Shown piece by piece: positions 5,250 to 55,199 of a DNA stretch of 64,000 nt. This DNA is from an uncultured Prevotella sp. (GTDB lineage: Bacteria > Bacteroidota > Bacteroidia > Bacteroidales > Bacteroidaceae): assembly GCA_905233165.1 (NCBI GenBank), contig CAJODL010000001.1, positions 563,927-627,926 on the forward strand. Direction: 5' to 3'. The position numbers were made by a program, and so were the translations under genes. The notes under the pieces are model-generated. The model had not been told where the DNA came from. It ran no database searches and was given only the letters and a program-made list of their open reading frames with translations. The first letter of the stretch is position 1, and every line of letters starts with the position of its first letter.

Positions 5250-5298
5250 TATAGTAGGGTATTTCTTATTGCCATTATTATAGTTTATTCTTTCGATG

Positions 5299-5795: not shown

Positions 5796-5803
5796 TACCT
5801 TTG
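5796..5803 (+). promoter_or_regulatory. Bacteroidota -7 box (TAccTTTG) for the VanZ-like/GT4 operon
   Basis: tacctttg lies 10 nt before ATG 5813, which implies a very short or absent leader. Confidence 0.45.
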
Positions 5804-5812
5804 CACACAGAT

Positions 5813-7287: not shown

Positions 7288-7310
7288 TTTATAGTTTAAA
7301 GTTTATAGTT
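7279..7310. repeat. heptad tract (agtttat/agtttaa) spanning the GT4 stop codon
   Basis: 4.5 in-register 7-mers. The same words recur at 57921-57948. Confidence 0.85.
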
Positions 7311-7358
7311 CTGTTTTCGTCATTTAAGATAAGGAAAGAAGAGCGCAAGAGTACCTTA

Positions 7359-29467: not shown

Positions 29468-29526
29468 CCTTAACGGTTATCGGTTAAAGACCTTTAAACT
29501 CTAAACTCTAAACTCTAAACTAAAAC
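29468..29526. repeat. heptad-built greA-HIT spacer (cggttat cggttaa ... taaactc x3)
   Basis: Period 7 is continuous from the greA stop to the HIT ATG (29528). Confidence 0.85.
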
Positions 29527-29527
29527 A

Positions 29528-29926
29528 ATGGATATTTTCTCAAAAATTGCTGCTGGTGAGATTCCCAGTTATAAGTGTGCAGAGAATGAAGAATTCTACG
29601 CGTTTCTTGATATTAGTCCTGTAGTAAAGGCTCATGTCCTCGTAATCCCACGTCGAGAGGTTGATTATCTCTTTGATATGGAAGATGATGAGATAGCCCG
29701 TTATTTCGTGTTCGCCAAGAAGGTGGCAAAGGCTATCAAGGAGGCGTTCCCTTGTAAGAAGGTTGGCATGAGTGTCTTTGGCTTGGAAGTAGCACATGCT
29801 CATATCCACCTGATGCCAATGGACACAGAGGGTGATATGGATTTCCGCAGGGAAAAGCTGTCATTGCCAGCAAACGAGATGGAAGAGATAGCAAATAAAA
29901 TTTTTACAGCTTTCCAAAACCTTTGA
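29528..29926 (+). CDS. HIT family protein
   Basis: Histidine triad HAHIHLMP. Confidence 0.9.
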   Translation: MDIFSKIAAGEIPSYKCAENEEFYAFLDISPVVKAHVLVIPRREVDYLFDMEDDEIARYFVFAKKVAKAIKEAFPCKKVGMSVFGLEVAHAHIHLMPMDTEGDMDFRREKLSLPANEMEEIANKIFTAFQNL

Positions 29927-29982
29927 CCTTTGACCTTAGACCTTTGACCTTTGGCCTTAGACCTTAGACCTTTGACCTTTGA
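29920..29982. repeat. heptad tract (cctttga/ccttaga x9) from the HIT stop toward rbfA
   Basis: Nine in-register 7-mers. Confidence 0.9.
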
Positions 29983-29994
29983 CTTTTTATAATT

Positions 29995-35246: not shown

Positions 35247-35322
35247 TACCGCTTGCCCCAATTTTAAAGCCCCAATTTTAAAGCCCCAAAAATAAACGTA
35301 GGCTGCAAATGTGCAGCCTACG
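35247..35322. repeat. left copy of the 76-bp perfect inverted repeat (two 14-bp tandem units plus a terminator hairpin)
   Basis: taccgcttgccccaattttaaagccccaattttaaagccccaaaaataaacgtaggctgcaaatgtgcagcctacg is the exact reverse complement of 47996-48071. Confidence 0.95.
35297..35322. terminator. bidirectional terminator hairpin inside the left IR
   Basis: 11-bp stem cgtaggctgca/tgcagcctacg with a 4-nt loop. A T-rich run follows on both strands. Confidence 0.65.
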
Positions 35323-35657: not shown

Positions 35658-35659
35658 AA

Positions 35660-35729
35660 CTTTAAACTTTCTACTTTAAACTTTTAACTGCCTATAAACT
35701 TTACACTTTAAACTCTACACTCTACACTA
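35660..35729. repeat. heptad tract (ctttaaa ctttcta ... tacactc tacacta)
   Basis: Ten in-register 7-mers downstream of the HU-like gene. Confidence 0.85.
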
Positions 35730-35778: not shown

Positions 35779-36390
35779 TTATCCCTCTTCCCAACCGTCG
35801 CCGGTGTTACCACCGCCGCCGTTGTTGCCGCCAGTGCTTGGTTCAGGGTCGGAGGGCTCATTCTGAGTATTCTGATTACTCTGATTACTCTGATTATTCT
35901 GAGTATTCTGAGAGCCCTCTGAGCCCTCCTCTGGGTCTTCCACCTCGCCAGCGTCAGAAGTGACACGCTTGATGATGTTGCCGTCCTTGTCGTAACAAGT
36001 GATGTTGATAGAAGTCTGCTTGAGTTCCTGCTTCAGGTCCACAGAAGGAGTGAACACGATACGACGAGAAGTGATGAGCTTTGATGCCACATCGTTTACA
36101 TCAGCGACGCTTTCAGAACGGAGTCCGAAACGCATGGTACCGAGTCCAGGGATTGCCACAGAGTGACCTTCAGTAGCCCATGCCTTGATTACCTCACCTG
36201 CTGCATCCCAACAAGCAGACATTACACCCTTAGAGACACCGCTACGCAGAGCAGCCTCTGAAATAACCTTGCTTTCGGAAAGTTTGCTGTAGAGCTCAGG
36301 CTTCAGCACATAGCGATAGCCAAGTGACTTCCCTTCCTTGTCGGAAAAATGACTGAGATCAGTCTCGATTGCTTTAACTTTAATAGACAT
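35779..36390 (-). CDS. Bacteroidota HU-related (histone-like) DNA-binding protein with a low-complexity C-terminal tail
   Basis: Core ...VISEAALRSGVSKGVM...VAIPGLGTMRFGL... resembles HU_rel proteins. The tail is QNTQNNQSNQSNQNTQNE...GGNNGGGGN. Confidence 0.7.
   Translation of the reverse strand: MSIKVKAIETDLSHFSDKEGKSLGYRYVLKPELYSKLSESKVISEAALRSGVSKGVMSACWDAAGEVIKAWATEGHSVAIPGLGTMRFGLRSESVADVNDVASKLITSRRIVFTPSVDLKQELKQTSINITCYDKDGNIIKRVTSDAGEVEDPEEGSEGSQNTQNNQSNQSNQNTQNEPSDPEPSTGGNNGGGGNTGDGWEEG
35860..35913. repeat. 9-bp-period tract (attctgagt/attctgatt/actctgatt) encoding the HU-like tail
   Basis: Six nonamers, in frame (Q-N-T/S repeats on the minus strand). Confidence 0.85.
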
Positions 36391-36453
36391 GATTTTGAAA
36401 ATTTTGAATTTTGATTGATTAATAATTTAACATTTCTCATGGCATCCTTCTTC

Positions 36454-36462
36454 TTATCCACA
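36454..36462 (+). promoter_or_regulatory. perfect DnaA-box 9-mer (TTATCCACA)
   Basis: Exact consensus 9-mer about 180 bp from the iteron-like arrays. A single occurrence could be chance. Confidence 0.3.
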
Positions 36463-36483
36463 ATCTTCAATCTTCAGTCTTCA
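36456..36483. repeat. heptad tract (atccaca atcttca atcttca gtcttca)
   Basis: Four 7-mers that overlap the DnaA-box-like 9-mer. Confidence 0.7.
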
Positions 36484-36557
36484 AAATTTTCTATGCGCAT
36501 GAAAATATTTTTTATGCTCTTGAAACGAAATAGCTGCGCGCTTGCTGATTTCTGATG

Positions 36558-36565
36558 CAAAGGTA
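36558..36565 (-). promoter_or_regulatory. -7 box (TAccTTTG, minus strand) for the HU-like gene
   Basis: caaaggta on the plus strand, about 170 nt upstream of the start at 36390. Confidence 0.4.
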
Positions 36566-36640
36566 CGACATATTTTTCTCTCACGAAAAATTAGCGTGGA
36601 TTTTAACATTTAGTCTTTTTGTGGTGGCTTCTGAGGTACG

Positions 36641-36676
36641 GTCGTAAAAGTCGTAAAAGTCGTTTTTGTCGTTTTA
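36641..36676 (+). repeat. array of four 9-bp iteron-like units (GTCGTAAAA x2, GTCGTTTTT, GTCGTTTTA)
   Basis: Read directly. Units 2-4 recur exactly at 46736-46762, and the array recurs in inverted form at 36846-36881. Confidence 0.9.
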
Positions 36677-36732
36677 GGGTTGCGGGCACGCATACGCATA
36701 TATATATATTATTAAATCTATTACTCACCCCC

Positions 36733-36752
36733 ATATAATATTAATATTATAT
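36733..36752. repeat. 20-bp perfect AT-only palindrome (atataatattaatattatat)
   Basis: Self-complementary. Lies between the two inverted 9-mer arrays, next to a (ta)n run at about 36699-36709. Confidence 0.9.
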
Positions 36753-36845
36753 CTCCCCCCTCTCTCTTCCTTTGCTTTTTACATTAGCATGTTATGTTTT
36801 TATCAAATCCAAAAGATGAAATAACAACAGGTTGCCAGAAAATGT

Positions 36846-36881
36846 AAAAACGACAAAAACGACAAAAACGACCAAAACGAC
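36846..36881 (-). repeat. array of four 9-bp units in inverted orientation (AAAAACGAC x3, CAAAACGAC)
   Basis: Reverse complement is GTCGTTTTG, then GTCGTTTTT x3. The 17-bp core gtcgtttttgtcgtttt is shared with the left array. Confidence 0.9.
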
Positions 36882-36893
36882 TGTTGATAAAAA

Positions 36894-36914
36894 CTTTAAA
36901 CTCTAAACTAAAAA
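36894..36914. repeat. heptad tract (ctttaaa ctctaaa ctaaaaa)
   Basis: Three 7-mers just after the right 9-mer array. Confidence 0.7.
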
Positions 36915-36951
36915 AACGAAGTGATTTTTTGCAGATATGGGGAAAAAGTAG

Positions 36952-36959
36952 TAAATTTG
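36952..36959 (+). promoter_or_regulatory. -7 box (TAaaTTTG) upstream of the RM-like pair
   Basis: taaatttg lies about 320 nt upstream of ATG 37279, which implies a long leader. Confidence 0.35.
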
Positions 36960-37278
36960 CAACCGCATCACACGATTACGATTGTGTGTTGAAGAGTGTG
37001 TAAGCGTACATTACTCGCAAATCTTAAGGGTTAAAATTAAAGACATTAGCAGTTATTAGGAGAACATAGAAACCTGAGAAATTTCTAAAATCCAAGCGAC
37101 CGATAGTTGTGAATGCCTGCGCTTATAGCGTGGACGTCACTTATCAGTTTGGTGGGCAATCTCAGGGCCTCTATGTTCGATAAGGAGCGGACACGCTTTT
37201 ATCGTGTATAGAGGTCTTGACGTTTTCAAGTCCCAAAGAATTCCGATAAGTGCTTTTGCCATTAGTTATAAGCACATT

Positions 37279-38331
37279 ATGTCCTCAAAGACCAAAGAGC
37301 CGTTGAATGTTGACGGCAAACTTCCCTATGTTGACATTCGGGAAGATGATCTGCGTAATATTTCGGAGGATGTATTAGAAGCACTTCTTCGAGACCATAC
37401 TACGCAGAAGAATATATTTTGGGCTACTCATGATTATGAGGAGTTAGGTGAAGGATATGAATACCATTCACCAATATTACCAAACCTAATCACTAAAGAA
37501 AATGGCTTGGTAATAAGACCTCGTGTGTTGAAAACAAAGGAAGAGCAAACAGCTCGTGCAAAGGGTAAAGCAGAAGTCTTTACTCCTTCGTGGGTTTGTA
37601 ATGCCCAGAACAATCTGGTTGATGAAGCATGGTTTGGAAGAAAGAATGTTTTCAATACAGAAAATTCTGCTAATCATACTTGGAGAGTAAACCATAACAA
37701 AATAGAGTTTCCAGAAGGTAAGACTTGGAGAGACTATGTGAAGGCTACTCGCATGGAGATAACTTGCGGTGAAGCTCCTTATCTTGTCAGTCGTTATGAT
37801 ACAACTACAGGCGAACCAATACCACTTGAAAGACGCATTGGTATTTTAGATAGAAAACTTCGTGTTGTAAGCGAAAATACTACCACTACCACACAATGGC
37901 TACAATGGGCCAGAGAGGCTTATAAAAGCACTTATGGATATGAGTGGCAAGGAGATAATCTCTTGCTTGCCAGAGAGGCTCTTTTGTGGAGTTTCTATGA
38001 GTATTATTATGCAAAGTTTGGCAAGAAACCACAAACCAAGTCAATGAAGTTTATTGCCTATATTGTTTCGTGGAATATATGGCAGATGGATGGCTTAAGG
38101 TGTGTGGTTCCTGATTCGTGCAAACATGGAGTAATAGAGAAGATACAAACCCTCTTTGGTGAAGAAGAAACCAAAGTAACTTGTCCTGGTTGTAATGAAG
38201 ATGATATTCATAAACACAATGGTATTTACTGCCTCATAAGAGATTGGGGAGTAAAGGACTTATGGACGAGAGAGAATAACAGAAAGATACGTTTTGTTGA
38301 CCTAATAACAGAAGAAGATGGCGACATTTGA
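37279..38331 (+). CDS. 350-aa partner protein of the helicase-methyltransferase fusion; MTase-like motif remnants plus a C-terminal Cys/His cluster; function unknown
   Basis: AEVFTPSWVCNAQNNL (motif X-like), EITCGEAPYL (degenerate motif I/IV-like, 37768-37782), C..H...CPGC..H.H...C. ATG 37279 preferred over GTG 37204. The 3' end overlaps the next gene by 14 nt. Confidence 0.65.
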   Translation: MSSKTKEPLNVDGKLPYVDIREDDLRNISEDVLEALLRDHTTQKNIFWATHDYEELGEGYEYHSPILPNLITKENGLVIRPRVLKTKEEQTARAKGKAEVFTPSWVCNAQNNLVDEAWFGRKNVFNTENSANHTWRVNHNKIEFPEGKTWRDYVKATRMEITCGEAPYLVSRYDTTTGEPIPLERRIGILDRKLRVVSENTTTTTQWLQWAREAYKSTYGYEWQGDNLLLAREALLWSFYEYYYAKFGKKPQTKSMKFIAYIVSWNIWQMDGLRCVVPDSCKHGVIEKIQTLFGEEETKVTCPGCNEDDIHKHNGIYCLIRDWGVKDLWTRENNRKIRFVDLITEEDGDI

Positions 38332-41300
38332 ATCATCATTAAAATCAAAACTGATTTATGTTTTTGCAATCCCAGATGAACGTCACAAGGATTGCCTAAA
38401 AATTGGAGAAACCACCATTGATGAAGATGATGGCAGTAATCTCTTTAATAATTCAGAAGTTCTACAGGAAGCAGCCCATCGTCGTATACGCCAATATACC
38501 AAGACGGCAGGCATAGCGTACCAGTTGCTATATACTGAGATAAGTATCTTCATGCATAGTGGCATGATAATGTCTTTTAATGACAAACAGGTGCATCATG
38601 TCTTGGAACGCTCTGGTATCAAGAAGAAGGAGTTTGACAACGTCAAAGGAGCCGATGAGTGGTATTGTTGCGACTTGGAAACTGTCAAGAAAGCAATACA
38701 AGCCATAAAACATGGCGAGACAAGCCTAAAGCCTTCAGATGTAACACAAGGACTTACCCCAATAATCTTCCGTCCAGAACAAAGAGAAGCTATAGACAAA
38801 ACACGCAAGCGCTTCAAAAAAGGCAACAATATGCTTTGGAATGCCAAGATGCGTTTTGGCAAGACTCTTTCTGCATTGCAACTTGTTAAGGAGGAGGAGT
38901 TTACAAGGACTCTTATATTGACCCATCGTCCTGTAGTCGATGAAGGTTGGTTTGAAGACTTCAATAAAATATTCTATGATCGTGATGACTATAAATATGG
39001 TTCACGGAATAAAGGCGAAGACTTCAACAAGTTAGAAAAACATTGTCCCAAGCAAAAGTACGTTTATTTTGCTTCTATGCAAGACCTGAGAGGCTCCGAA
39101 CAAGTAGGCGGCAAGTTTGATAAGAACGATAAAATCTTCTCCACTCCTTGGGATTTTATAATAATAGATGAAGCTCACGAAGGTACAAAGACAGAATTAG
39201 GGCAAAACGTAATAACAGAACTTATAAAGCCAACCACAAAAGTATTGCAGCTGTCAGGTACTCCATTTAACCTATTTGATGATTACACTGAGAACGAAAT
39301 CTTCACTTGGGATTATGTAATGGAGCAGAAAGCAAAACAGACTTGGGCAGTAGATAATCCATATGAGCCTAATCCATATGTTTCTTTGCCAGCAATAAAT
39401 ATATATACATACGACCTTGGAAACCTCATGTCTGAATATGCAGAGGATGAAAAGGCATTTAACTTCAAAGAATTTTTCAGGACAAGAGATGATGGTTCGT
39501 TTATCCATGATAATGATATAGACCGTTTTCTTGTGTTACTATGCAAGGAAGACAAAGACAGCCTCTATCCATATAGCAACGAAACATTCCGCAGGACATT
39601 CCGCCACACACTTTGGCTTGTGCCAGGAGTGAAATCAGCAAGGGCTTTGAGTGCAAAGCTTCAGTCACATCCTGTTTTTGGTAACTTCAAGATTGTCAAT
39701 GTTGCAGGAAATGGTGATGAAGATGAAGAGAATGACGAGGCATTACAGATGGTTAACAAGGCTATAGGTAGTGACCCAAGTCAGACCTATACCATTACAT
39801 TAAGTTGTGGAAGACTTACAACTGGTGTCAGCATCAAGCCTTGGACAGCAGTATTTATGATGGCAGGTTCTTTCAGTACTTCTGCAGCACAATATATGCA
39901 AACAATCTTCCGTGTCCAGACTCCTTTTGAATGTAATGGAAGGATGAAGGAACAATGTTATGCTTTCGACTTTGCTCCAGATAGGACGTTGAGAGTACTT
40001 GCAGAAGCAGCAAAGGTTTCAACCAAAGCAGGCAAACAATCGGATGAAGACCGAAGAATACTTGGCGATTTTCTGAACTTCTGTCCTATAATCTCCATCG
40101 ATGGCTCTCAGATGAAGCCATACGATGTGAACAAGATGATGAGCCAACTGAAAAAGGCTCAAATAGAACGTGTAGTACAAGGAGGTTTTGAAGATGTTGC
40201 CCTATATAATGATGAACTGCTGAAGCTAACAGATGTAGATTTAAAAGAATTTGCCAATCTGAAGAAGATAATCGGCTCTACGAAGGCTATGGCAAAGACT
40301 GCCGACATAGATGTAAATAATCAAGGCTTTACGAATGAGGAATACGAAGAGAAGGAACGCCTAGAGAAGAAACCAAAGAAGCAGCTTACACCTGAGGAAT
40401 TGGAACGTCTGAGAGAACTCAAGGAGAAGAATAATGAGCGGAAGAACGCTATCAGTATCCTTCGTGGAATTTCTATTCGAATGCCATTGCTTATCTATGG
40501 AGCAGAATTAAAGAATGAGGAAGACGAAATAACAATAGATAATTTTGCAACACTTGTTGATGACCAGTCATGGGAAGAATTTATGCCCAAAGGTGTTGAT
40601 AAGAAATACTTTGAAAAGTTCAAAAAATACTATGACCCAGACATATTCCGAGAGTCAGGAAAGCGAATTCGCGAAATGGCTCGTACAGCTGACAAGTTTA
40701 CTATTGAAGAGCGCATAGAACGTATTTCAGCCATCTTCAACACTTTCCGTAATCCAGACAAAGAAACCGTTTTAACTCCTTGGAGAGTAGTTAATATGCA
40801 TATGAGTGATTGCCTTGGAGGCTGGTGTTTCTATGATAAGAATTTTGAACATACTTTGGATGTTCCAAGATATGTAAATCAAGGCAAGGTGACGAAAGAC
40901 GTATTCCGTCCAGACAGCCATATTTTGGAAATAAATTCAAAGAGTGGTCTTTATCCGCTTTATGTTGCTTATAACATTTATCGCAGCAGAGTCGAGGCAG
41001 CAAAGGAGAAATACGGAGATGTTAGTCACGGCTTTGCTATGCAGCTATGGGATGCAACAATAGAGGAGAATGTCCTTGTGGTATGTAAAACCCCTATGGC
41101 GAAAAGTATAACCAAGCGCACCCTTGCAGGATTCCGTAATACAAGGGTGAATGCACAATATTATCCTAACCTTATAGAAAACATTTCAGAGAAGCCTGAA
41201 CTAGTAATCAATACCCTTCGTGATGGCAAACGCTTCTGGAAAATAAATCAAGATGAAACAATGAAAATAGACGCAATAGTAGGAAATCCGCCGTATCAGG

Positions 41301-42232
41301 TAAATGTGGGAATAAAAAAAGATAACTATGGAGTTCTAATTTTTGATAAATTTGTTCAGCTCTCAAAAAAAATGACTCCAAACTATATTTCAATGATTAT
41401 GCCATCTCGCTGGTTTACAGGAGGTAGAGGATTGGATACCTTCCGAGATGAAATGCTGAATGATAGAAGAATTTCTTTTATCAAAGATTTTGTTGATTCT
41501 AAAGAATGTTTCCCTGGAGTCGATATAGCTGGTGGTATTTGCTACTTTTTATGGGATAAGAAACACAATAGTGATTGTACTTTTGTTAGCCGAATAAGAG
41601 GAAAAGATACTAAAACTGTGAGAAAACTCAATGAATATGAATTATTCCCTCGTTATAATGAGGCTCTTTCTATTATAAGAAAAGTCACGGAGAAAAAAGA
41701 AAAAAACTTTTCTACTACAGTGGGACCTCAAACAGCATTTGGTTTTATTACGACATTTAGAAGCACTACAGAATACTTTGATGATGCTATTGCTTTATAT
41801 ACAAGTGGAGGCATAAATTATGTTAAAAGGGAGGAGGTCAAAAAAGCACAAGAGTGGATTGATTTATATAAAGTTATATTTTCAACAGCAACTGCTGAAC
41901 ATGCAGGTACACCAGATAAGAGTGGAAAATATAGAGTACTTTCATCCTTACGAATAATAAAACCTAAGGAAATATGTTCTCAAAGTTATTTTGTTGGGAA
42001 CGTTTTTAAAACACATGACGAGGCTGTTAATTGTATGGAATACTTGAAGACAAAATTTGTTAGATTCCTTTTACAACAATTAATAACAGGACAACATTTA
42101 AGTGCTGATAAATTTAGATTCGTCCCACTTCAGGATTTTACCCATTCTTGGACAGACGAAATGTTATACAAGAAATACAAATTTAATGAAGAAGAAATAT
42201 TGTTCATTGAATCCATGATAAAACCAATGTAA
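38318..42232 (+). CDS. 1304-aa fusion: T5orf172 (GIY-YIG superfamily) domain, SF2/ResIII DEAH helicase, coiled-coil linker and gamma-class N6-adenine DNA methyltransferase (Eco57I/TaqI-like) with a C-terminal TRD-like region
   Basis: LIYVFAI..LKIGETT..RRIRQY..DEWY; FGKT (GKT at 38858-38866); IIIDEAHEG (DEAH at 39167-39178); LSGTPF; TPWRVVNMH, ILEINSKSGLY, DAIVGNPPYQ (NPPY at 41285-41296). Confidence 0.85.
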   Translation: MATFESSLKSKLIYVFAIPDERHKDCLKIGETTIDEDDGSNLFNNSEVLQEAAHRRIRQYTKTAGIAYQLLYTEISIFMHSGMIMSFNDKQVHHVLERSGIKKKEFDNVKGADEWYCCDLETVKKAIQAIKHGETSLKPSDVTQGLTPIIFRPEQREAIDKTRKRFKKGNNMLWNAKMRFGKTLSALQLVKEEEFTRTLILTHRPVVDEGWFEDFNKIFYDRDDYKYGSRNKGEDFNKLEKHCPKQKYVYFASMQDLRGSEQVGGKFDKNDKIFSTPWDFIIIDEAHEGTKTELGQNVITELIKPTTKVLQLSGTPFNLFDDYTENEIFTWDYVMEQKAKQTWAVDNPYEPNPYVSLPAINIYTYDLGNLMSEYAEDEKAFNFKEFFRTRDDGSFIHDNDIDRFLVLLCKEDKDSLYPYSNETFRRTFRHTLWLVPGVKSARALSAKLQSHPVFGNFKIVNVAGNGDEDEENDEALQMVNKAIGSDPSQTYTITLSCGRLTTGVSIKPWTAVFMMAGSFSTSAAQYMQTIFRVQTPFECNGRMKEQCYAFDFAPDRTLRVLAEAAKVSTKAGKQSDEDRRILGDFLNFCPIISIDGSQMKPYDVNKMMSQLKKAQIERVVQGGFEDVALYNDELLKLTDVDLKEFANLKKIIGSTKAMAKTADIDVNNQGFTNEEYEEKERLEKKPKKQLTPEELERLRELKEKNNERKNAISILRGISIRMPLLIYGAELKNEEDEITIDNFATLVDDQSWEEFMPKGVDKKYFEKFKKYYDPDIFRESGKRIREMARTADKFTIEERIERISAIFNTFRNPDKETVLTPWRVVNMHMSDCLGGWCFYDKNFEHTLDVPRYVNQGKVTKDVFRPDSHILEINSKSGLYPLYVAYNIYRSRVEAAKEKYGDVSHGFAMQLWDATIEENVLVVCKTPMAKSITKRTLAGFRNTRVNAQYYPNLIENISEKPELVINTLRDGKRFWKINQDETMKIDAIVGNPPYQVNVGIKKDNYGVLIFDKFVQLSKKMTPNYISMIMPSRWFTGGRGLDTFRDEMLNDRRISFIKDFVDSKECFPGVDIAGGICYFLWDKKHNSDCTFVSRIRGKDTKTVRKLNEYELFPRYNEALSIIRKVTEKKEKNFSTTVGPQTAFGFITTFRSTTEYFDDAIALYTSGGINYVKREEVKKAQEWIDLYKVIFSTATAEHAGTPDKSGKYRVLSSLRIIKPKEICSQSYFVGNVFKTHDEAVNCMEYLKTKFVRFLLQQLITGQHLSADKFRFVPLQDFTHSWTDEMLYKKYKFNEEEILFIESMIKPM

Positions 42233-42341
42233 AATTGAAAAAAAAATATTGTCTCTACAATAATTTGCAGAGTCAAATGTTAAAATGTATCAAAAAAACC
42301 TCTGGTAAGAGGATGGGTTATTTTTGTAAATAATTTTTTTG

Positions 42342-42349
42342 TAACTTTG
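42342..42349 (+). promoter_or_regulatory. -7 box (TAacTTTG) for the 42373 gene
   Basis: taactttg lies 24 nt upstream of ATG 42373. Confidence 0.45.
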
Positions 42350-42372
42350 CACGAGGCAAAAAAAATAAAGAA

Positions 42373-42885
42373 ATGACTCAGAAAGAAGCATTGGAACAGG
42401 CTCTTAAAGATTTAGGTGGACGCGCTCCGCTAAAAGATATCTATCCTATAGCATTAAAGTATTGTACACATAAAGAGGGCAGTAAAATAAAGGAAGCATT
42501 AAGATCATGTATACATAGGGATCGAAGTAAATTCATCCCTTCACCAGGCAAACCTGTTGGCTGGTGGGAGTTAACATCATTTCAGGAAGATGTTGCCCAA
42601 ATGAAGACTCACATCCAAGAGTTAGAAGAGGAAAATGAAAGATTGAGAAAAGTTCCTACGGAAGATGATTTCGTAGAGAGATTTATAAAGCAAGTGAAGA
42701 CTTTTCTAAAACGTGATAAGAAGTCAGTTGACGAGATAAGGAAGATATTAGTGGCATTAAATCGTGCAGATGCTGCAAAAGATCTTGATAACTGGATAGA
42801 AGAGAATGATACTCCTTTGCTGTCTATCGGTTCAGCAAGTGACATCATAGAGAGAGGTGGAAAGAAAATAGTTAATAACAGATAG
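42373..42885 (+). CDS. winged-helix (Mrr_N/HARE-HTH-like) plus coiled-coil protein
   Basis: N-terminal QKEALEQALKDLGGRAPLKDIYPIAL... resembles restriction-system N-terminal wHTH domains. Central region is heptad-rich (QELEEENERLRK). Confidence 0.55.
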   Translation: MTQKEALEQALKDLGGRAPLKDIYPIALKYCTHKEGSKIKEALRSCIHRDRSKFIPSPGKPVGWWELTSFQEDVAQMKTHIQELEEENERLRKVPTEDDFVERFIKQVKTFLKRDKKSVDEIRKILVALNRADAAKDLDNWIEENDTPLLSIGSASDIIERGGKKIVNNR

Positions 42886-42894
42886 AGAAAGACA

Positions 42895-43311
42895 ATGTCT
42901 ATATACATAAGAGGTAATGTGATCGGCGACGTCATAGAAGCTGGGGCAGTGAAGAATGAGACTCACTACCACTATGAGGGTGAGCAGAAAGCGGAGGAAA
43001 AACAAGGCAATATCAACAACGTAAATGAATTGCCTAAAGAACTTCTGACGGATGAGGCCCAGGTGTTGTGGCAAAGTCTAAGAGATAATGGATTTATTGT
43101 TGCTGATGGTTATGATTTGGCTAAAGGTGTGTCAAGCAACCAAGCGACTTACATAGCTGATTGTATGGCTGAAAGGCTGGATATCCAAAACAAATGGAAG
43201 GTGTTTGAACAGTTATGGGGTATTAAACATATGGCTCAGATGGCTGGATCTTGGAAACAAACAGGCAAGGAACCATCCCGCGCAAATGAAATTCGAGAGC
43301 TTTTAGAATAG
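42895..43311 (+). CDS. hypothetical protein (138 aa)
   Basis: ORF lies 10 nt after the previous stop. No recognised motif. Confidence 0.5.
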   Translation: MSIYIRGNVIGDVIEAGAVKNETHYHYEGEQKAEEKQGNINNVNELPKELLTDEAQVLWQSLRDNGFIVADGYDLAKGVSSNQATYIADCMAERLDIQNKWKVFEQLWGIKHMAQMAGSWKQTGKEPSRANEIRELLE

Positions 43312-43353
43312 GTTGAATATCAACCGATTAGGGTCTTATATAAGTCTTATGGT

Positions 43354-43379
43354 AGGTCTTATATAAGACCTTTTTTTTT
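43354..43379 (+). terminator. rho-independent terminator
   Basis: Palindrome aggtcttatataagacct followed by a T9 run. Confidence 0.6.
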
Positions 43380-43390
43380 GTCCCTTTATT

Positions 43391-43398
43391 TACCTTTG
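43391..43398 (+). promoter_or_regulatory. -7 box (TAccTTTG) for the replication-module genes
   Basis: tacctttg lies 75 nt upstream of ATG 43473. Confidence 0.45.
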
Positions 43399-43472
43399 CA
43401 CTCAGAAATCCAGAACAATTCTGGTCGTGCAAGGGAATAGTTCCATGTGCGTACATATTTAATAACAAAATT

Positions 43473-43757
43473 ATGGAAACAAAGATTTTAAAAGTGGTAC
43501 GTCAGGGCGAGGCCTTCAATGTACCGAGTAAGACGACTGAATCGGGAGAGATTCAGAAATGTAACATTGTGTTGAAAGAGCTTGGAAGCTCGAAGTACGA
43601 GAATGAGTATTCATGTGTCATGCTGGGCAACCTGGCCGGATGCAAATTTGCAGAGGGGAGCATCGTGGCAGCTACTCTGAAGTTCTCAACTCACGAAAAC
43701 AACGGTGCGACCTATCAGGACATCCTGGCAACGGACATTGTGACGGTTAAGGGTTAA
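43473..43757 (+). CDS. small OB-fold-like protein (DUF3127-like, from recall)
   Basis: 94 aa. The length and pattern (MExKILKVV....G......VLKE...... F.EG..V...L.F...E.NG..YQDI.A..I) resemble DUF3127. Confidence 0.45.
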   Translation: METKILKVVRQGEAFNVPSKTTESGEIQKCNIVLKELGSSKYENEYSCVMLGNLAGCKFAEGSIVAATLKFSTHENNGATYQDILATDIVTVKG

Positions 43758-43807
43758 AGGTTAACGGTTAAAGGTCTAAAACTTAATTTTCAATTTTCAA
43801 TTAACTT
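43745..43807. repeat. heptad tract (ggttaag ggttaaa ggttaac ggttaaa ggtctaa aacttaa ttttcaa ttttcaa ttaactt)
   Basis: Nine in-register 7-mers that start within the last codons of the 43473 gene. Confidence 0.85.
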
Positions 43808-43890
43808 GAGTTGAAGGGGAGGAGTCTTCACGTGATTAAAGATGGCCATCGGATTTCCGAAACTTCTCTCGCTAAAAACAACTCAAAGAA

Positions 43891-44235
43891 ATGATTAAAA
43901 AGATTTTTATAAAAAACGAAAAGCAAGTTATGAACGTCCTGAAGAAAGGACAAGTGGTGGAAGGTCGTTTGAGAATAGAAAGGGCAGATGATGGCAGAAT
44001 ATGCATATGCTTCAAGGCATGGGAACGTACTGCTCCGAAATGCGGACATCGTGACAGAGGCAAGATAATAATGAGGACTGAACATGGATGGGTGAAGGAA
44101 TCGAAGGAAAGGATTAAAACCTATGAGAGCGTGCCGAAAGACCTTGGCAAGCAGAAGGTCGTGGCAATACTGGATAGGGATACGTATGAGGCGTGTGACT
44201 TCCTTATGTCTTACTCGGAAACTAATAACTTTTAA
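43891..44235 (+). CDS. hypothetical basic protein (114 aa)
   Basis: ORF immediately upstream of the primase-helicase gene (8-nt gap). Confidence 0.45.
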   Translation: MIKKIFIKNEKQVMNVLKKGQVVEGRLRIERADDGRICICFKAWERTAPKCGHRDRGKIIMRTEHGWVKESKERIKTYESVPKDLGKQKVVAILDRDTYEACDFLMSYSETNNF

Positions 44236-44243
44236 TACCGAAT

Positions 44244-46742
44244 ATGGAAAGAGTATATAGTTATATAGACGGTGTGACGGATACGAAACCCAAGCCGTTG
44301 ACAAGGGAGAAATTCCATGAACTCTGCAAAGCACCACGCACAAGGAAACTTGTGCGTGACTTCCAACAGGGTAACGGGGAGGCAAAGAAAAAACTGCCTG
44401 CTGCCATGTTTCTCGGATTTCAAACACAGGGTGACCGCATACAGGAACATATGGAGCCTACGCAACTTTACCTAATTGATATCGACCATATCAGTAACAA
44501 GAACGAGGACATGACCCCTGAAATGGTATGGGAGAAGATAAGACAGGAGATGGAGGTGGCGCAATATGACTTCATGGTAAGACTTGTTCACAAGACTCCA
44601 AGTGGTGATGGGCTGAGAATTGTGCTACATGCTACGGAGAACTTCGAGACTCTGGAAGAACATGCCGAATGGTTGAGAAAGGAACTCGACCTGGACAGAT
44701 ATGGAAAATTTGACTGCCTGAAAAATCTCGACAGGGTGTCGTTCATAATTCCTGAAGAATACATCCTCCTTGAAAGTCCATGTCTGTGGGATGAGACAGA
44801 AGAAGGTGGACCGATAAAGAAGAAAACGAAGGATGAAGGACGAAAGACGAAGGACGATAACCATAACGTTAACGAAAACAACTCTCAACTGTCAACTTTC
44901 AACTCTAAACTGAACGATGACGGGGAACCTATCTTGTGGGAGGGGTATGACATTCAGAAGATTATCGATGACCGATACAGAAGGGGGGTGCCTGGGGCAG
45001 GAAACATATCGAGGCATGATCAGAGCTTGAAACTGGCACGTGACCTTCTTATTATGTTCGACCGCGATAAGAGCCTTGTTCTCAGAATATTGCTTAGGCA
45101 GAGCTGGATAAAGGACATAATTAAGGAACGCAACGAACCTGTTGAAAAAACGATTGAAGCGGCTCTGACTTATGCTAACGGCAAGGATGGTGGAAAGTAT
45201 GCCCTGACATACAGGTATCTGACGCCTGCAACGCAAAACTCTATACTGCATGTAACGGGAAATACATGGAAAGAATGGATAGCAGAACTTGATGCGAAGT
45301 TTGAAGAAACTCTGGAAGAAAGAAACGATAACGAAAACGAAAACCAGGACGAAAACTATGACGAAGACGATGACGAAGAAGATGCTGTTGCGACTATGCC
45401 GCCTGCACCACCTGTGATAAGGGAACTGATATCTATTGCTCCAAAGGATTTCGTGATACCTGCCATCAATGCTCTGATGCCAATACTGGGTACGTTGACA
45501 TCATACGTAAGGGCTGAGGACAAGCAGGATGCGAAAACGATATCTACAACATTCTTCTCCATAATCTATGCTCCGCCATCATCGGGTAAAAGCTTCGTTG
45601 ATAGGTATATCAACTACCTCATGCGTGACCTCTACAGACGAGACGAACTGAATGATGCAAGGGATGAAGTTTATGCAAGGGCTGACCAACAGAAAGGTCA
45701 GAACGTGCATGGAGAGCCACTGCCACTGACTACGATACGCATAATGGAGGCAAAGAGCTCTGAAACAGAGTTTCTGCAGAAACAGAGAAACAACAAGGGG
45801 CATCATATGTTTACGTACTGTTCGGAGATAGACCAGTGGCGCAAAGGTGTAAAGGCTGCAGGTGGTAATAAGGACGACATGATACGCATAGCATGGGACA
45901 ATGGACGATATGGACAGAAATACAAATCAACCATGTCCTTTAAGGGTAAGGTGTTCCTGTACTGGAATGTGCTCATAGCAGGTACCGACGATCAGTTACG
46001 GGCGTATTTTAAGAATGTGACGAACGGACTGGTGACGAGATGCTGCTTTCAGGAGATAAAGAACCAGGAATTTCAGGAAGTCCCCCCAGAATGGAAGACC
46101 TTGAACAAGAAGGAACGGAAGGTTATAGACAATTTTATAGAAAAGTGTGACCGGATGACCTATACAGAGCCTCTTACCTACGACGTGGAGCAATGCTATA
46201 GCGTGGCCGACAAAGACTTTGACGCAGAGGTGCCATGGCGGATGGACTTCAAACCCCTGATAACTGTTAATATCGATTGGATAATGCCCACAATAGCACG
46301 GTTCAACAGAGAGCATTGCAGAAAGGCGATGATGGACAATGATAGAGCTCATGACACTTTTCGCAGACGAGTAGGAACAAGAGCTAAGAGACTGGCATTG
46401 TTATGTACCCAGTTGTATGAAAAATCCATGACACAGGCTGACAAAAAAGCTTGCGCAAAGTGGATAGCATGGTGGATGGAACAGGATATAAAAGGTATAA
46501 TGAGACCATTCGCAAACAAATACAGAAAAGCTATAGAAGAAGATACTCCTGACAATACTCCACGAAAGACTCTGTTTGAACGACTGCCTGAAGAATTTTC
46601 GAAAGAAGACGTAAGAAGAATGGCTGATATCTTGGGATATAAGACGAGTGTTAGAGAAATTACTTTCAGGTGGAAGAAAATAAATATTATAGAGAAAATG
46701 ACAAATGATACTTGGAGGAAAATTACAGAGAAAAAGTCGTAA
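44244..46742 (+). CDS. primase-helicase: VirE_N/BT4734-like N-terminal primase domain plus DUF3987-type P-loop helicase domain
   Basis: N-terminal KKLPAAMFLG.....R....PTQLYLIDIDH pattern. Low-complexity linker. Walker A PPSSGKSF (GKS at 45585-45593). Confidence 0.75.
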   Translation: MERVYSYIDGVTDTKPKPLTREKFHELCKAPRTRKLVRDFQQGNGEAKKKLPAAMFLGFQTQGDRIQEHMEPTQLYLIDIDHISNKNEDMTPEMVWEKIRQEMEVAQYDFMVRLVHKTPSGDGLRIVLHATENFETLEEHAEWLRKELDLDRYGKFDCLKNLDRVSFIIPEEYILLESPCLWDETEEGGPIKKKTKDEGRKTKDDNHNVNENNSQLSTFNSKLNDDGEPILWEGYDIQKIIDDRYRRGVPGAGNISRHDQSLKLARDLLIMFDRDKSLVLRILLRQSWIKDIIKERNEPVEKTIEAALTYANGKDGGKYALTYRYLTPATQNSILHVTGNTWKEWIAELDAKFEETLEERNDNENENQDENYDEDDDEEDAVATMPPAPPVIRELISIAPKDFVIPAINALMPILGTLTSYVRAEDKQDAKTISTTFFSIIYAPPSSGKSFVDRYINYLMRDLYRRDELNDARDEVYARADQQKGQNVHGEPLPLTTIRIMEAKSSETEFLQKQRNNKGHHMFTYCSEIDQWRKGVKAAGGNKDDMIRIAWDNGRYGQKYKSTMSFKGKVFLYWNVLIAGTDDQLRAYFKNVTNGLVTRCCFQEIKNQEFQEVPPEWKTLNKKERKVIDNFIEKCDRMTYTEPLTYDVEQCYSVADKDFDAEVPWRMDFKPLITVNIDWIMPTIARFNREHCRKAMMDNDRAHDTFRRRVGTRAKRLALLCTQLYEKSMTQADKKACAKWIAWWMEQDIKGIMRPFANKYRKAIEEDTPDNTPRKTLFERLPEEFSKEDVRRMADILGYKTSVREITFRWKKINIIEKMTNDTWRKITEKKS
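44826..44916. repeat. 13-heptad tract inside the primase-helicase CDS (acgaagg-type words switching to ctNtcaa-type words)
   Basis: acgaagg atgaagg acgaaag acgaagg acgataa ccataac gttaacg aaaacaa ctctcaa ctgtcaa ctttcaa ctctaaa ctgaacg. Confidence 0.85.
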
Positions 46743-46762
46743 AAGTCGTTTTTGTCGTTTTA
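46736..46762 (+). repeat. third copy of the 9-mer array (GTCGTAAAA, GTCGTTTTT, GTCGTTTTA)
   Basis: 27 bp identical to 36650-36676. Overlaps the primase-helicase stop codon (46740-46742). Confidence 0.9.
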
Positions 46763-46796
46763 TCAAAAATTGTTTTACATTAAATAATAAGTAAAG

Positions 46797-47288
46797 ATGG
46801 GAATACAAAAGAGCAGATATGCAAGTTATAAAGAAACGCCAGCCTATCGTAACAGGAATCCGTTGAACATACGATGGTCGGCAAAGAATAAGTGGCAGGG
46901 CCAGACAGGATGTGACACAAGAGGTTTTGCCAAGTTTGAGAGCCTGAGCTACGGCTATCGTGCAGCAGTGAAGATACTGCATCGGTACAAGACAAACGGA
47001 TGGAAGACCATAGCGGAGGTGATACGCCATTGGGCACCATCTACAGAGAATTCCACCGAGAGTTATATAAAAACCGTGTGTAACCTGATGGCACAACGGC
47101 AGAGTGAGTTGGGAACAATAACCCCACAGACACAGGTGGACTTGAGAAACAGAAATCTTGTGATAAACCTTCTCTTAATGATGACCAAGGTGGAGACGGG
47201 ATGGAGTACAACGGCAGTATTGTCAATGAGGGAGTATATCGGGATGGGTTACGACCTCGCCGCAACAAGTCCGGAGTTTTTTAAATAA
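46797..47288 (+). CDS. phage-associated conserved hypothetical protein (163 aa)
   Basis: NPLNIRWS..NKWQG....GFAKFESLSYGYRAAVKIL..Y...GWKTIAEVIRHWAPSTENSTESYIKTV. The pattern is recalled from phage proteins, but function is not established. Confidence 0.5.
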   Translation: MGIQKSRYASYKETPAYRNRNPLNIRWSAKNKWQGQTGCDTRGFAKFESLSYGYRAAVKILHRYKTNGWKTIAEVIRHWAPSTENSTESYIKTVCNLMAQRQSELGTITPQTQVDLRNRNLVINLLLMMTKVETGWSTTAVLSMREYIGMGYDLAATSPEFFK

Positions 47289-47296
47289 CAAAACAG

Positions 47297-47330
47297 AGGC
47301 TGCATTTGGTTGCAGCCTTTGATTTATTTA
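47297..47330 (+). terminator. rho-independent terminator
   Basis: Stem aggctgca (47297-47304) pairs with tgcagcct (47311-47318), then a T-rich tail. The stem core is the same as in the IR hairpins. Confidence 0.55.
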
Positions 47331-47364
47331 ATTGTAAAAGATAAAAGTTAATAGTTTTTAGTTT

Positions 47365-47484
47365 ATGAACGATAAGAAAAATATTTGGCAGGTGTTGGCG
47401 AAGGTGATAGTAGCCGCACTGACAGCAGCGCTCACAGCTGTTACAACAACGTCATGTATGGGATTTGGACCTATGTTAAGTTGA
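47365..47484 (+). CDS. 39-aa small membrane/lipoprotein-like peptide ('smalltalk'-like, from recall); below the ORF-track cutoff
   Basis: ATG 47365 encodes MNDKKNIWQVLAKVIVAALTAALTAVTTTSCMGFGPMLS, then a stop. Confidence 0.5.
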   Translation: MNDKKNIWQVLAKVIVAALTAALTAVTTTSCMGFGPMLS

Positions 47485-47530
47485 GAGTTTAGAGTTTAGA
47501 GTTGAGAGTCAGTTTAAAAGTTTATAGTTT
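47479..47530. repeat. heptad tract (gagttta/gagttga/gtttata) filling the spacer before the DUF5675 gene
   Basis: About 7 in-register 7-mers. Confidence 0.8.
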
Positions 47531-47992
47531 ATGGAACTAATTTTAAAAAGAATAGCAAAACGTAAAGGTTATACAATAGGAATACTCTACCTCTCCCCCT
47601 TGGGGGAGTCGGAGAGGGGTTATCTTTGCGACACTCTTGAGCCGCCGTGTATTGAGATGAAGGTGGACAGGACAGTTGAGGAGGTGCTGAATGATAAGAG
47701 TCTCCTGAAGTCTATCAAGCCGTGTGCGATACCGGAAGGGGAATACAGGGTCAGTATGACATACAGCCCAAGGTATAAAACGCAGCTGCCGTTGATAACG
47801 GGTGACAGCCGCTTTAACAGCCTCTGGCAAGGCATCCGCATCCACGCCGGCAACACCGCAAAGGATACACAAGGTTGCATCCTGGTAGGAGAAAACCAAA
47901 TCGTAGGAATGGTGATAAATTCGCGTATCACCTTGAAGACCCTCCTGACTTTCCTTAAAGGGAGGGATGTAAAGTTGAGAGTGAAAAGTTAA
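47531..47992 (+). CDS. DUF5675-family protein
   Basis: GYLCDTLEP...IPEGEY.V.....SPRY...LPLI......GIRIHAGNTAKDTQGCILVGEN matches the recalled DUF5675 pattern. Confidence 0.65.
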   Translation: MELILKRIAKRKGYTIGILYLSPLGESERGYLCDTLEPPCIEMKVDRTVEEVLNDKSLLKSIKPCAIPEGEYRVSMTYSPRYKTQLPLITGDSRFNSLWQGIRIHAGNTAKDTQGCILVGENQIVGMVINSRITLKTLLTFLKGRDVKLRVKS

Positions 47993-47995: not shown

Positions 47996-48033
47996 CGTAG
48001 GCTGCACATTTGCAGCCTACGTTTATTTTTGGG
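47996..48033 (+). terminator. rho-independent terminator after the DUF5675 gene (inside the right IR)
   Basis: 11-bp stem, 4-nt loop, then tttattttt. Confidence 0.7.
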
Positions 48034-48071
48034 GCTTTAAAATTGGGGCTTTAAAATTGGGGCAAGCGGTA
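47996..48071. repeat. right copy of the 76-bp perfect inverted repeat
   Basis: Exact reverse complement of 35247-35322. Confidence 0.95.
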
Positions 48072-48134
48072 GCTTTGCGAAAATAGCTTATATATAAAAT
48101 AAAAAAGGTCAGCATATTTTGCTGGCCTTTTATG

Positions 48135-48205
48135 TTGTCCTAGGCGGATTCGAACCACCACAAACAGAACCAAAACCTGTTGTGCTACCATTACACCATA
48201 GGACA
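48135..48205 (-). tRNA. tRNA-Gln (anticodon UUG)
   Basis: Folded by hand: acceptor TGTCCTA/TAGGACA, D arm GTGT/GCAC, anticodon stem ACAGG/TCTGT with loop TTTTGGT, T arm GGTGG-TTCGAAT-CCGCC. 71 nt; CCA is not encoded. Confidence 0.9.
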
Positions 48206-48237
48206 ATCCAAAATAGACAATTTTTGAAATTGCGCTG

Positions 48238-48245
48238 CAAAGGTA
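48238..48245 (-). promoter_or_regulatory. -7 box (TAccTTTG, minus strand) for tRNA-Gln
   Basis: caaaggta on the plus strand, 33 nt upstream of the tRNA 5' end. Confidence 0.4.
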
Positions 48246-48317
48246 CGAAAAAAAAACGAAAACCAAAACGAAAACGAAAACTTTTTTTATTTTTGTTCGT
48301 TTTTCGACCTTTAACCG

Positions 48318-51666: not shown

Positions 51667-52029
51667 ATGACAGAACAGATACAGAAACTAACAGAAACAG
51701 CCGTAAAGGCCATAAAGGATAAGAAGGGTAAAGGCATCAGAGTCATCGACATGCAGGGCATGGATGGTGTCATCTGTCAGGCCTTCGTAATATGTCAGGG
51801 TGGTTCGCCTACCCAGATATCAGCCATTGCCGACAATGTAGAAGAGGTGATGCGCAAGGAACAGGGTGAGAAGCCCCTCAAAATCGCTGGTATGGAGAAT
51901 TGCTACTGGGTAGCAATGGATTATGTTGACATCATCGTACATATCTTCCTTCCAGAGGCACACGACTTCTATGACATCGAGTCACTATGGCAAGATGCGA
52001 AAGTAACGGAAATCCCAGACGAAGAGTAA
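51667..52029 (+). CDS. rsfS: ribosome silencing factor RsfS
   Basis: 120 aa. The pattern ..KKG..I.VIDM......C..FVIC.G.S..Q..AIADNV and WVAMDY.DIIVHIF is typical of RsfS/Iojap. Confidence 0.9.
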   Translation: MTEQIQKLTETAVKAIKDKKGKGIRVIDMQGMDGVICQAFVICQGGSPTQISAIADNVEEVMRKEQGEKPLKIAGMENCYWVAMDYVDIIVHIFLPEAHDFYDIESLWQDAKVTEIPDEE

Positions 52030-52030
52030 A

Positions 52031-52107
52031 GGTCAAAGGTCAAAGGTCAAAGGCTGATTTTCTTAACTCTTAATTCTTAATTCTTAACTCTTAACTCTTA
52101 ACTACAA
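52031..52107. repeat. heptad-built rsfS-ftsH spacer (ggtcaaa x3, ggctgat, tttctta, then actctta/attctta x6, actacaa)
   Basis: Eleven in-register 7-mers occupy essentially the whole spacer (stop at 52027-52029, ATG at 52111). Confidence 0.9.
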
Positions 52108-55031: not shown

Positions 55032-55199
55032 GGTCAAAGGTCTAAGGTCAAAAGTCAAAGGAAGAAAGGTGATGGTTTAATACCAACTCTACAAACAAAC
55101 CTTCACCCATAAACCTTCACCCATAAACCTTCATCCTTCATCCATAAACCTTCACCAAAATAACAATGTTCAATTTTCAATGTTCAATTTTCAATATAC
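55025..55199. repeat. 25 consecutive in-register heptads filling the cdsA-GH127 spacer
   Basis: Counted base by base: ggtctaa ggtcaaa ggtctaa ggtcaaa agtcaaa ggaagaa aggtgat ggtttaa taccaac tctacaa acaaacc ttcaccc ataaacc ttcaccc ataaacc ttcatcc ttcatcc ataaacc ttcacca aaataac aatgttc aattttc aatgttc aattttc aatatac. Confidence 0.95.

Follow-up and report, generated by a model that had tools for sequence, protein, structure and literature searches.

A candidate iteron origin with inverted 9-mer arrays in a primase-helicase cassette of rumen-type Prevotella

We analysed 64,000 nucleotides of DNA (hereafter the window) from an uncultured, rumen-type Prevotella (contig CAJODL010000001.1, positions 563,927 to 627,926). 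The window contains a 12.8-kb cassette, extending from an HU gene to a DUF5675 gene, which encodes an 832-residue primase-helicase and carries three arrays of short tandem repeats, referred to as A1, A2 and A3. The closest relatives of the 832-residue protein are found in metagenome-assembled genomes of Prevotella from deer, sheep and cattle. Cassettes featuring HU and DUF3987 primase-helicase genes are common in Bacteroidales genomes; to our knowledge, no role has been assigned to them, and literature searches were near-empty. The features of the cassette and of related loci are listed in Table 1.

Table 1. Positions of arrays, genes and other features in the window and in related loci (R-M, restriction-modification; ORF, open reading frame).
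Locus	Feature	Position	Strand	Details
Window	A1, left iteron set	36641-36676	+	four 9-mers GTCGT(A/T)4: GTCGTAAAA GTCGTAAAA GTCGTTTTT GTCGTTTTA
Window	A2, right iteron set, inverted	36846-36881	-	four 9-mers, minus strand: GTCGTTTTG then GTCGTTTTT x3
Window	A3, third array	46732-46762	+	three units; 31-bp exact copy of 36646-36676
Window	Origin-like spacer	36677-36845		169 bp, 67% A+T, 20-nt pure A/T runs
Window	C-tract / AT palindrome / C-tract	36726-36760		CACCCCC-ATATAATATTAATATTATAT-CTCCCCCC
Window	Primase-helicase gene	44244-46742	+	832 aa; PrimPol (BT4734-like N) / DUF3987 ATPase / C-terminal winged helix, from weak family matches and models
Window	Predicted winged helix	46593-46721	+	residues ~784-826; AlphaFold model
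L008	Arrays	6512-, 8058+, 8205-, 12355+		unit GCACTTTT
L031	Arrays	1015-, 1369+, 1539-, 5890+		unit GTAAACATG
L009	Arrays	2677-, 3723+, 3940-, 13311+		unit AGTWACAAA
L054	Arrays	2648-, 6222+, 6364-, 10852+		unit TGTTCATT
L098	Arrays	5471-, 8907+, 9052-, 13575+		unit GTTCCYTC
L106	Arrays	6927+, 7126-, 13494+		unit CGGTTTCA
L010	Arrays	1108+, 1319-, 12288+		unit TTGTCCACA
L109	Arrays			four, alternating strand; unit AAGTAACAA
L002	Gene-end array			unit AATGGTGCC
L004, L011, L032	Gene-end array			unit AAGTCGCCA
L025	Gene-end array			unit AAGTCGTCA
L007, L026	Gene-end array			unit AAAGTATCA
L012	Gene-end array			unit AAGTTTCAA
L039	Gene-end array			unit AAGGTGAAC
L002	Translated third array	12461-12496		
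L004	Translated third array	1503-1538		
L007	Translated third array	8779-8814		
L039	Translated third array	2701-2729		
Window	76-bp perfect inverted repeat, left copy	35247-35322	+	outer left edge of cassette
Window	Small membrane ORFs	to 35779		
Window	HU-HIG DNA-binding protein gene	35779-36390	-	transcribed away from A1
Window	Intergenic region with A1-A2	36391-37203		813 bp
Window	Bacteroidetes-type -7 box TACCTTTG for HU gene	36558-36565	-	~75 bp left of A1
Window	Likely rightward-operon promoter TTTG-N20-TAAATTTG	36928-36959	+	47 bp right of A2; inferred from consensus
Window	Methyltransferase and 1304-aa helicase/Eco57I-type methylase	37204-42232	+	Type IIG-like R-M
Window	Four small ORFs	42373-44235		
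Window	Conserved 114-aa gene, directly 5' of primase-helicase gene	43891-44235	+	tblastn: L001, L002, L009, L012, L021, L025, L028
Window	163-aa lysozyme-like protein	46797-47288		
Window	DUF6486 'smalltalk' peptide	47365-47484		
Window	DUF5675	47531-47992		
Window	76-bp perfect inverted repeat, right copy	47996-48071	-	just before tRNA-Gln
Window	tRNA-Gln	48134-48205	-	
Window	Heptamer arrays	29495-29521, 29919-29987, 35658-35728, 47479-47509, 52028-52103, 55025-55195, others		
Window	Cargo slot	36944-43451		Type IIG-like
L012	Cargo slot	442-7539		Type I
L021	Cargo slot	1251-5259		C5-methylase and MvaI/BcnI enzyme
L009	Cargo slot	4867-5463		MjaI enzyme
L010	Cargo slot	1848-2921		D12 methylases
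L108	Cargo slot	2349-5844		D12 methylases

Arrays and spacer in the window

A re-reading of the sequence confirmed two arrays of four 9-mers on opposite strands, as described in the initial annotation, which had been made from the letters of the window without database searches. The first A2 unit (GTCGTTTTG) ends in G and thus falls outside the W4 pattern. The same annotation reported a 27-bp distant copy overlapping the stop codon of the primase-helicase gene. The copy and the overlap are real, but the identity spans 31 bp. The TAA codon (46740-46742) lies inside the first A3 unit, and the identical sequences in A1 and A3 are offset by 10,086 bp. By arithmetic, an exact repeat of this length within 64 kb is not attributable to chance. 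GTCGTWWWW occurs 17 times in the window versus 5.4 +/- 2.4 times in 100 shuffles of the 64-kb sequence, none of which reached 17, and 11 of the 17 occurrences fall in the three arrays.

The perfect 20-bp AT palindrome (ATATAATATTAATATTATAT, 36733-36752), the (TA)n run and the C-tracts reported for the spacer are all present. Moving through the spacer, alternating purine-pyrimidine sequence runs into (TA)n at approximately 36686-36712 and is followed by a C-tract, the palindrome, a second C-tract and a CT-rich stretch. The A1-A2 pair sits 7.4 kb upstream of the primase-helicase gene, a distance that ranges from 4 to 9 kb in relatives. The window has no GTCGT-type counterpart of the outer left array (A0) that is found in many relatives; its outer edges bear instead a 76-bp repeat with its own 14-mer array.

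Public sequencing runs (X1, X2, X7 and X12) were examined as Logan assembled contigs (k=31), which break exactly at the 31-bp repeat. A contig of run X12 has one additional GTCGTAAAA copy at A1, and in this run the sequence departs from the window right after 36880, at the outer end of A2. Array copy number differs among strains, as an extra A1 unit is present in X12 and an extra A3 unit in the related locus L021.

The perfect DnaA box noted at 36454-36462 (TTATCCACA) is also present, in the HU leader and 187 bp from A1, but it is not conserved among homologous origin-like regions. A box at the matching position is found only in L021, which encodes a protein 98% identical to that of the window; the other matches, among 10 further homologous regions, are one-mismatch sequences located inside the TTGTCCACA units of L010. 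The whole window contains 2 perfect and 18 one-mismatch boxes. Because of this non-conservation, the box was rejected as a part of the origin. An oriC-type, DnaA-dependent origin was also rejected, as there is no box cluster beside the putative unwinding element and one perfect box only.

Array layout in related loci

Approximately 100 loci encoding relatives of the 832-residue protein were gathered and given L numbers. The array layout of the window occurs in many rumen Prevotella genomes; about 19 independent Prevotella loci, encoding proteins 33-98% identical to that of the window, share it. Inverted pairs were defined by arms of 16 nt or more that are separated by 90-230 bp, the spacer having to include a 24-nt window made up almost purely of A and T. 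Apart from the window, 18 distinct loci have such inverted arrays upstream of the homologous gene, and L099 and a partial pair at the start of L002 are additional cases. In the annotated loci scanned, every AT-type inverted pair lies upstream of the homologous gene, and the rest of the 64-kb window contains one unrelated, non-tandem inverted pair. The arms consist of tandem 7-9-mers, the unit of which is private to each locus. Conservation beside homologous genes had been proposed as a check on the arrays; they are kept, each locus with its own unit, and unrelated parts of the loci do not contain these units.

The spacers of relatives are 108-177 bp long, and the same order of elements is observed in about 20 related loci. 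A GC-rich, alternating purine-pyrimidine element (e.g., GCACGCATACGCA, CACGTGCGTACG or CGCGCGCG) is located next to one array and is followed by a 19-53-nt run consisting purely of A and T, and then by two C4-7 boxes separated by 14-40 bp. The C boxes of the window, L028, L106 and L109 bracket an AT palindrome, and this composite motif may be a priming site or a site for a host factor. In more distant loci, two C5 boxes are 14-18 bp apart and no palindrome is present. The asymmetric spacer has one orientation relative to the gene in 16 loci and is flipped in 5 of 21 (L002, L008, L051, L079 and L084).

The unit of the inverted pair is found again as A3 in at least 12 loci, either 3' of the primase-helicase gene or 3' of the lysozyme-like gene that follows it, and a further array of it often lies on the far side of the HU genes (A0). 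Strands alternate without exception, in the order A0(-) A1(+) A2(-) A3(+), and within each locus the A3 unit is that of the pair located 4-12 kb away. Recurrence of the unit at A3 is also observed in L002, L099 and L108 (unit YGCCAAA). The initial annotation placed the partner array at the stop codon of the gene. This holds for the window and its clade, whereas most relatives have the array at the cassette boundary, often together with a fourth one. Its core idea, that the arrays are tied to the cassette's own primase-helicase in a layout of origin and distant partner, is backed by the homologous cassettes.

In the clade of the window, the gene ends in a four-copy 9-mer array whose sequence differs by lineage. 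In several lineages, this third array is in frame and translated, giving rise to (NGA)4, (KSP)4, (KVS)4 or (KVN)3. The encoded peptide varies freely while the DNA periodicity persists, which indicates that selection acts on the DNA.

Heptamer arrays (TAAACTC, ACCTTTG, AACTTTA, AGTTGAG, AAAGGTC and others) are located directly 5' of start codons across the window, and the same families occur in unrelated Prevotella contigs (L033, L035, L040, L060, L105 and L108), as a genome-wide feature. With 89 tandem-repeat rows in the window, the original caveat that the cassette arrays might belong to such a background was a fair one, but they differ from it in kind. Background arrays are heptamers (e.g., AGTTTAR, ACCTTTG or TAATTGA) of families common to unrelated genomes and lie directly 5' of start codons. 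In contrast, cassette arrays are 8-9-mers private to the locus and occupy four fixed positions with a fixed relative strand, next to genes whose proteins are 33-55% identical. Judged by this sequence comparison, the arrays are part of a conserved layout and not background repeat noise.

The primase-helicase and the surrounding cassette

Family matches of the 832-residue protein are weak but concordant, and include a BT4734-like N-terminal domain, CRISPR-associated PrimPol, DUF3987 and a phage 'DNA primase/helicase' family. An alignment of 26 relatives shows no variation at residues D79, D81 and H82, nor at G448 and K449 of the Walker A motif. The full AlphaFold model has a mean predicted local distance difference test (pLDDT) score of 72.5 and ends in a strand-helix-helix-hairpin (residues 784-826). 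Foldseek matches of the full model, all weak (E >= 0.003) but coherent, include MCM subunits, Cch (5dgk) of the staphylococcal cassette chromosome mec (SCCmec), Rep68 of adeno-associated virus, the CAPP PrimPol and the polymerase domain of LigD. When the C-terminal 130 residues were modelled on their own (pLDDT 81), the best match was the winged-helix domain of MCM8 (root-mean-square deviation 1.2 A over 47 columns, E 0.12), followed by other DNA-binding winged helices. Sequence searches of the PDB returned zero matches. No relative of the protein was found in a plasmid search and an IMG/VR scan, and the GenBank phage collection yielded one weak match; these nearly empty searches indicate that the cassette does not represent a known plasmid or phage replicase. 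As modelled, the protein looks like a replication initiator, with PrimPol, AAA+/SF3-like (MCM-like) helicase and C-terminal winged helix in this order.

The proteins of L002, L004 and L025 are about 100% identical over approximately 450 residues. Differences are confined to helices 2-3 of the predicted winged helix (KYQARNVIT, NTPTTKIIS and NYKPREIIY, respectively), and the adjoining array unit differs too. The window and L012 proteins share 85% identity overall and about 50% in the last 40 residues, and the units are GTCGTAAAA and GTTTCAAAA, respectively. Although only 55% identical overall, the L054 and L099 proteins have an xRRIxF helix in common, and the two loci share a GTTCAT unit. A one-to-one code linking recognition helix and repeat unit was considered and rejected: L054 and L099 agree with it, but L009 and L109 contradict it. 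The conserved 114-residue protein encoded directly 5' of the primase-helicase gene, for which family searches gave no match, was rejected as the array binder because the window and L012 versions differ at few residues, with no cluster comparable to that in the winged helix.

The window and L021 are homologous between the HU gene and 36943 and again over 43452-47348; the intervening sequences are unrelated. From relative to relative, a different R-M system occupies this slot, which lies between A2 and the small conserved genes that precede the primase-helicase gene. By gene content, the slot beside the candidate origin is a defence-gene hotspot, with five R-M types. Close cassettes reside in different neighbourhoods, as observed for the window and L021 and for L109 and L110. 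The cassettes of L109 and L110 are 99.8% identical and have a common right flank but unrelated left flanks, the break (compared at L109 3805-3893 and L110 3797-3903) occurring about 50 bp inside A0, which is present in L109 only.

The HU-HIG gene occupies the same position in L008, L009, L010, L028, L106, L108 and L109. The 76-bp repeat bracketing the cassette occurs in two copies only in the window, each consisting of a hairpin terminator and the 14-mer GGGGCTTTAAAATT repeated 2.5 times. The sequence outside the repeats shows no target-site duplication, and a search for an empty site via the neighbouring 586-residue gene returned the same strain only. An Rfam scan of the window detected only the tRNA-Gln, indicating that no known RNA accounts for the array region. 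No recombinase gene was found within or next to the cassette, whether of the window or of the relatives checked, and family searches revealed no integrase or packaging families among the cassette ORFs. Peptidase_S24 (LexA/CI-like) repressor-like genes are present in L108 (6761-8633) and L109 (8463-9296), and L108 also carries a Bro-N/ANT antirepressor-like gene; these genes hint at damage-inducible control.

A putative origin, its alternatives and known systems

Taken together with the domain make-up of the protein, the array sequences make it somewhat probable, in our judgement, that A1, A2 and their spacer form an iteron origin read by the cassette's self-loading PrimPol-helicase, with A3 and A0 as accessory sites. 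The three arrays would be iterons bound by the C-terminal winged helix of this protein. As A1 and A2 face each other across a presumably easily melted A/T tract, two helicase rings may be loaded head to head, after which the PrimPol domain would prime synthesis. A3 may be an accessory cis site, serving either as a partner that loops to the origin, similar to crr of phage P4, or as an oriented barrier confining the forks; in relatives, it usually marks the right cassette edge, and A0 the left. Given the fixed alternation of strands, the outer arrays would present the same relative orientation to each of the two forks that leave the origin. In run X1, contig depth reaches 122-134 across 36.2-43.8 kb and 112-113 across the primase-helicase gene, compared with 101-106 in the flanks (1.1-1.3x), and in X2 it is flat.

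Several points weigh against an iteron origin. Depth differs between X1 and X2, and the rise in X1 is possibly due to strain mixtures, since X7 has the flanks without the cargo of the window. The cassette has no integrase, and searches with its protein gave no plasmid relative and a single weak phage match, which provides no cue to when a chromosomal origin would fire. Units are spaced by 9 bp and not by one helical turn. L009 and L109 share the unit AGTAACAAA, but their recognition helices differ. In the window's clade, the region coding for the winged helix abuts A3, so that joint swapping of the two could be hitch-hiking; the match of A3 to A1 and A2 over 4-12 kb is not explicable by linkage. 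Finally, these genomes commonly contain short tandem repeats, and there are heptamer arrays that likewise recur within a locus.

The arrays might instead lack any origin function and be operators, located between divergent promoters and at operon ends. A winged-helix autorepressor, or some other protein of the cassette, would then regulate transcription or fold the DNA into a repression loop. A1 and A2 do lie between the HU box and the rightward promoter, A3 and A0 adjoin terminator hairpins in L008 and L109, separate S24 repressor-like genes are found in L108 and L109, and iteron-binding initiators commonly autoregulate. However, operators have no need for a conserved A/T tract, purine-pyrimidine element and C5 boxes between the arrays; moreover, the promoters are outside the arrays, 47-75 bp off, and the conserved protein associated with them is a primase-helicase rather than a dedicated regulator. 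We regard operators without origin function as unlikely, but the two functions are compatible and could coexist. Recombination at the arrays, resulting in inversion of the spacer or operon, in excision by A1 and A3 of a 10,086-bp circle that would carry the spacer, the R-M cargo and the primase-helicase gene, or in cargo exchange, appears distinctly improbable. It would fit the two spacer orientations (16 versus 5 loci), the variation of cargo among close relatives, the end of X12 homology exactly at the outer end of A2, and the left flanks of L109 and L110, which differ near A0. Yet the cassettes are devoid of an accompanying recombinase gene, no array marks the point where the variable cargo ends on the right (43452), and all close relatives of the window have one spacer orientation. 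A flipped spacer can also come from rare homologous exchange between inverted arrays, and no joint of an inversion or of a 10,086-bp deletion is listed in the run contigs, which break at the 31-bp repeat. An invertible promoter of the Bacteroidales kind was rejected on account of promoter boxes outside the arrays, no recombinase gene nearby and the single orientation shared by close relatives.

Very improbable, in our view, is that the arrays are short tandem repeats born by slippage and kept alike by gene conversion, with no specific function. The abundance of tandem repeats in the window, the recurrence of heptamer arrays within loci and the strain-variable copy number are in line with such an origin of the repeats. 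In contrast to the background, consisting of heptamers shared between genomes at start codons, cassette units are locus-unique and are associated with a fixed layout and a conserved spacer; furthermore, gene conversion between 30-bp tracts over 4-12 kb, kept in a dozen lineages, needs selection. The iteron origin could also be part of an integrase-less, resident replicative island of Bacteroidales, a rather unlikely extension. Such an island would fire in place, with A0 and A3 stopping the forks and the cargo being amplified, or exchange between A1 and A3 would free a 10-kb replicating circle. DNA damage or phage might act as the trigger, as suggested by the S24 repressor and antirepressor genes of relatives. 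If true, this would provide a programmed, local boost in gene dosage for the cassette and its R-M cargo only.

P4 reportedly has a second, distant repeat cluster (crr) that acts in cis, which is said to have been described by Ziegelin and Lanka in 1995, and P4-like elements carry defence-gene hotspots. As in P4, in which the iteron is present both in the origin and in the distant cluster, A1 and A3 share 31 bp, and the recurrence is found in at least 12 relatives; by analogy, A3 may have a cis role. The P4 alpha protein binds origin repeats via a winged helix (PMC4234260), and the window protein is likewise a primase-helicase with a predicted C-terminal winged helix. However, alpha consists of a Toprim primase, a D5/SF3 helicase and a winged helix, whereas the window protein is of the PrimPol type, with an N-terminal domain of the archaeo-eukaryotic primase (AEP) superfamily. 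The P4 comparison made in the initial annotation does not extend to the protein, which is not an alpha homologue; no sequence homology to alpha was detected. Unlike those of P4, the iterons of the cassette are tight tandem 9-mers in two inverted sets, and no phage-like late genes or integrase are present.

In the origins of Staphylococcus aureus pathogenicity islands (SaPIs) and Gram-negative phage-inducible chromosomal islands (PICIs), the C-terminal domain of Rep reads two iteron sets that flank an AT-rich region (PMC7581432, PMC6092414). The cassette is similar in having two sets of short iterons around an AT-rich region and in being a chromosomal element with accessory genes. Origin specificity in SaPIs and PICIs resides in the helicase C-terminal domain, thought to bind as two hexamers, and the predicted winged helix of the window protein may be the counterpart. 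In contrast, the SaPI/PICI origin is directly downstream of rep, whereas in the cassette the pair is upstream of the gene, and a single array marks the gene or cassette end. SaPIs and PICIs, whose induction and packaging depend on a helper phage, also have an integrase, att sites and packaging genes, which the cassette lacks. The cassette features a fused primase and helicase, an AEP-type primase, and boundary arrays (A0/A3) in alternating orientation. Primase type, origin position and absence of an integrase place the cassette outside the P4 and PICI families.

A single protein, ORF904 of plasmid pRN1, unites a prim-pol, an AAA+/SF3-type helicase and a winged helix at the C-terminus, in the same domain order as the window protein, and P4 alpha is functionally alike (PMC4234260). 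In SCCmec, a chromosomal cassette, an MCM-like self-loading helicase binds direct repeats beside its gene (PMC7581432). Unlike the cassette analysed here, the pRN1 origin is a stem-loop without iterons, and SCCmec contains no more than three repeats, along with Ccr recombinases; the layout of inverted pair and boundary arrays is absent from both. In simian virus 40 (SV40, large T), papillomavirus (E1) and herpes simplex virus (oriS/UL9), inverted initiator sites lie on either side of an A/T-rich element, an arrangement that gives rise to head-to-head double hexamers. These origins, which belong to eukaryotic viruses, resemble the cassette in architecture only. In SV40 large T and papillomavirus E1, the DNA-binding domains are N-terminal to the helicase (PMC7581432). 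The best-supported reading is that the cassette is a further variant of the iteron-origin/initiator-helicase kind.

If each cassette has its own origin and initiator, these chromosomes would contain many private replicons, and the origin-adjacent slot would be a defence-gene hotspot. The near-isogenic L002, L004 and L025 proteins, which differ in winged helix and unit, make the evolution of initiator specificity directly testable.

The Bacteroidetes -7 promoter consensus is TAnnTTTG. A GTACCTTTGCA box precedes both the HU gene (36556-36566) and tRNA-Gln (48237-48247) on the minus strand, and is also found ahead of operons in L002, L008, L012 and L031. Within the HU-HIG gene, the 9-bp sequence ATTCTGAGT is repeated in frame 5.9 times (35860-35912), and run X1 contains, at high depth, a variant with one 9-bp unit fewer.

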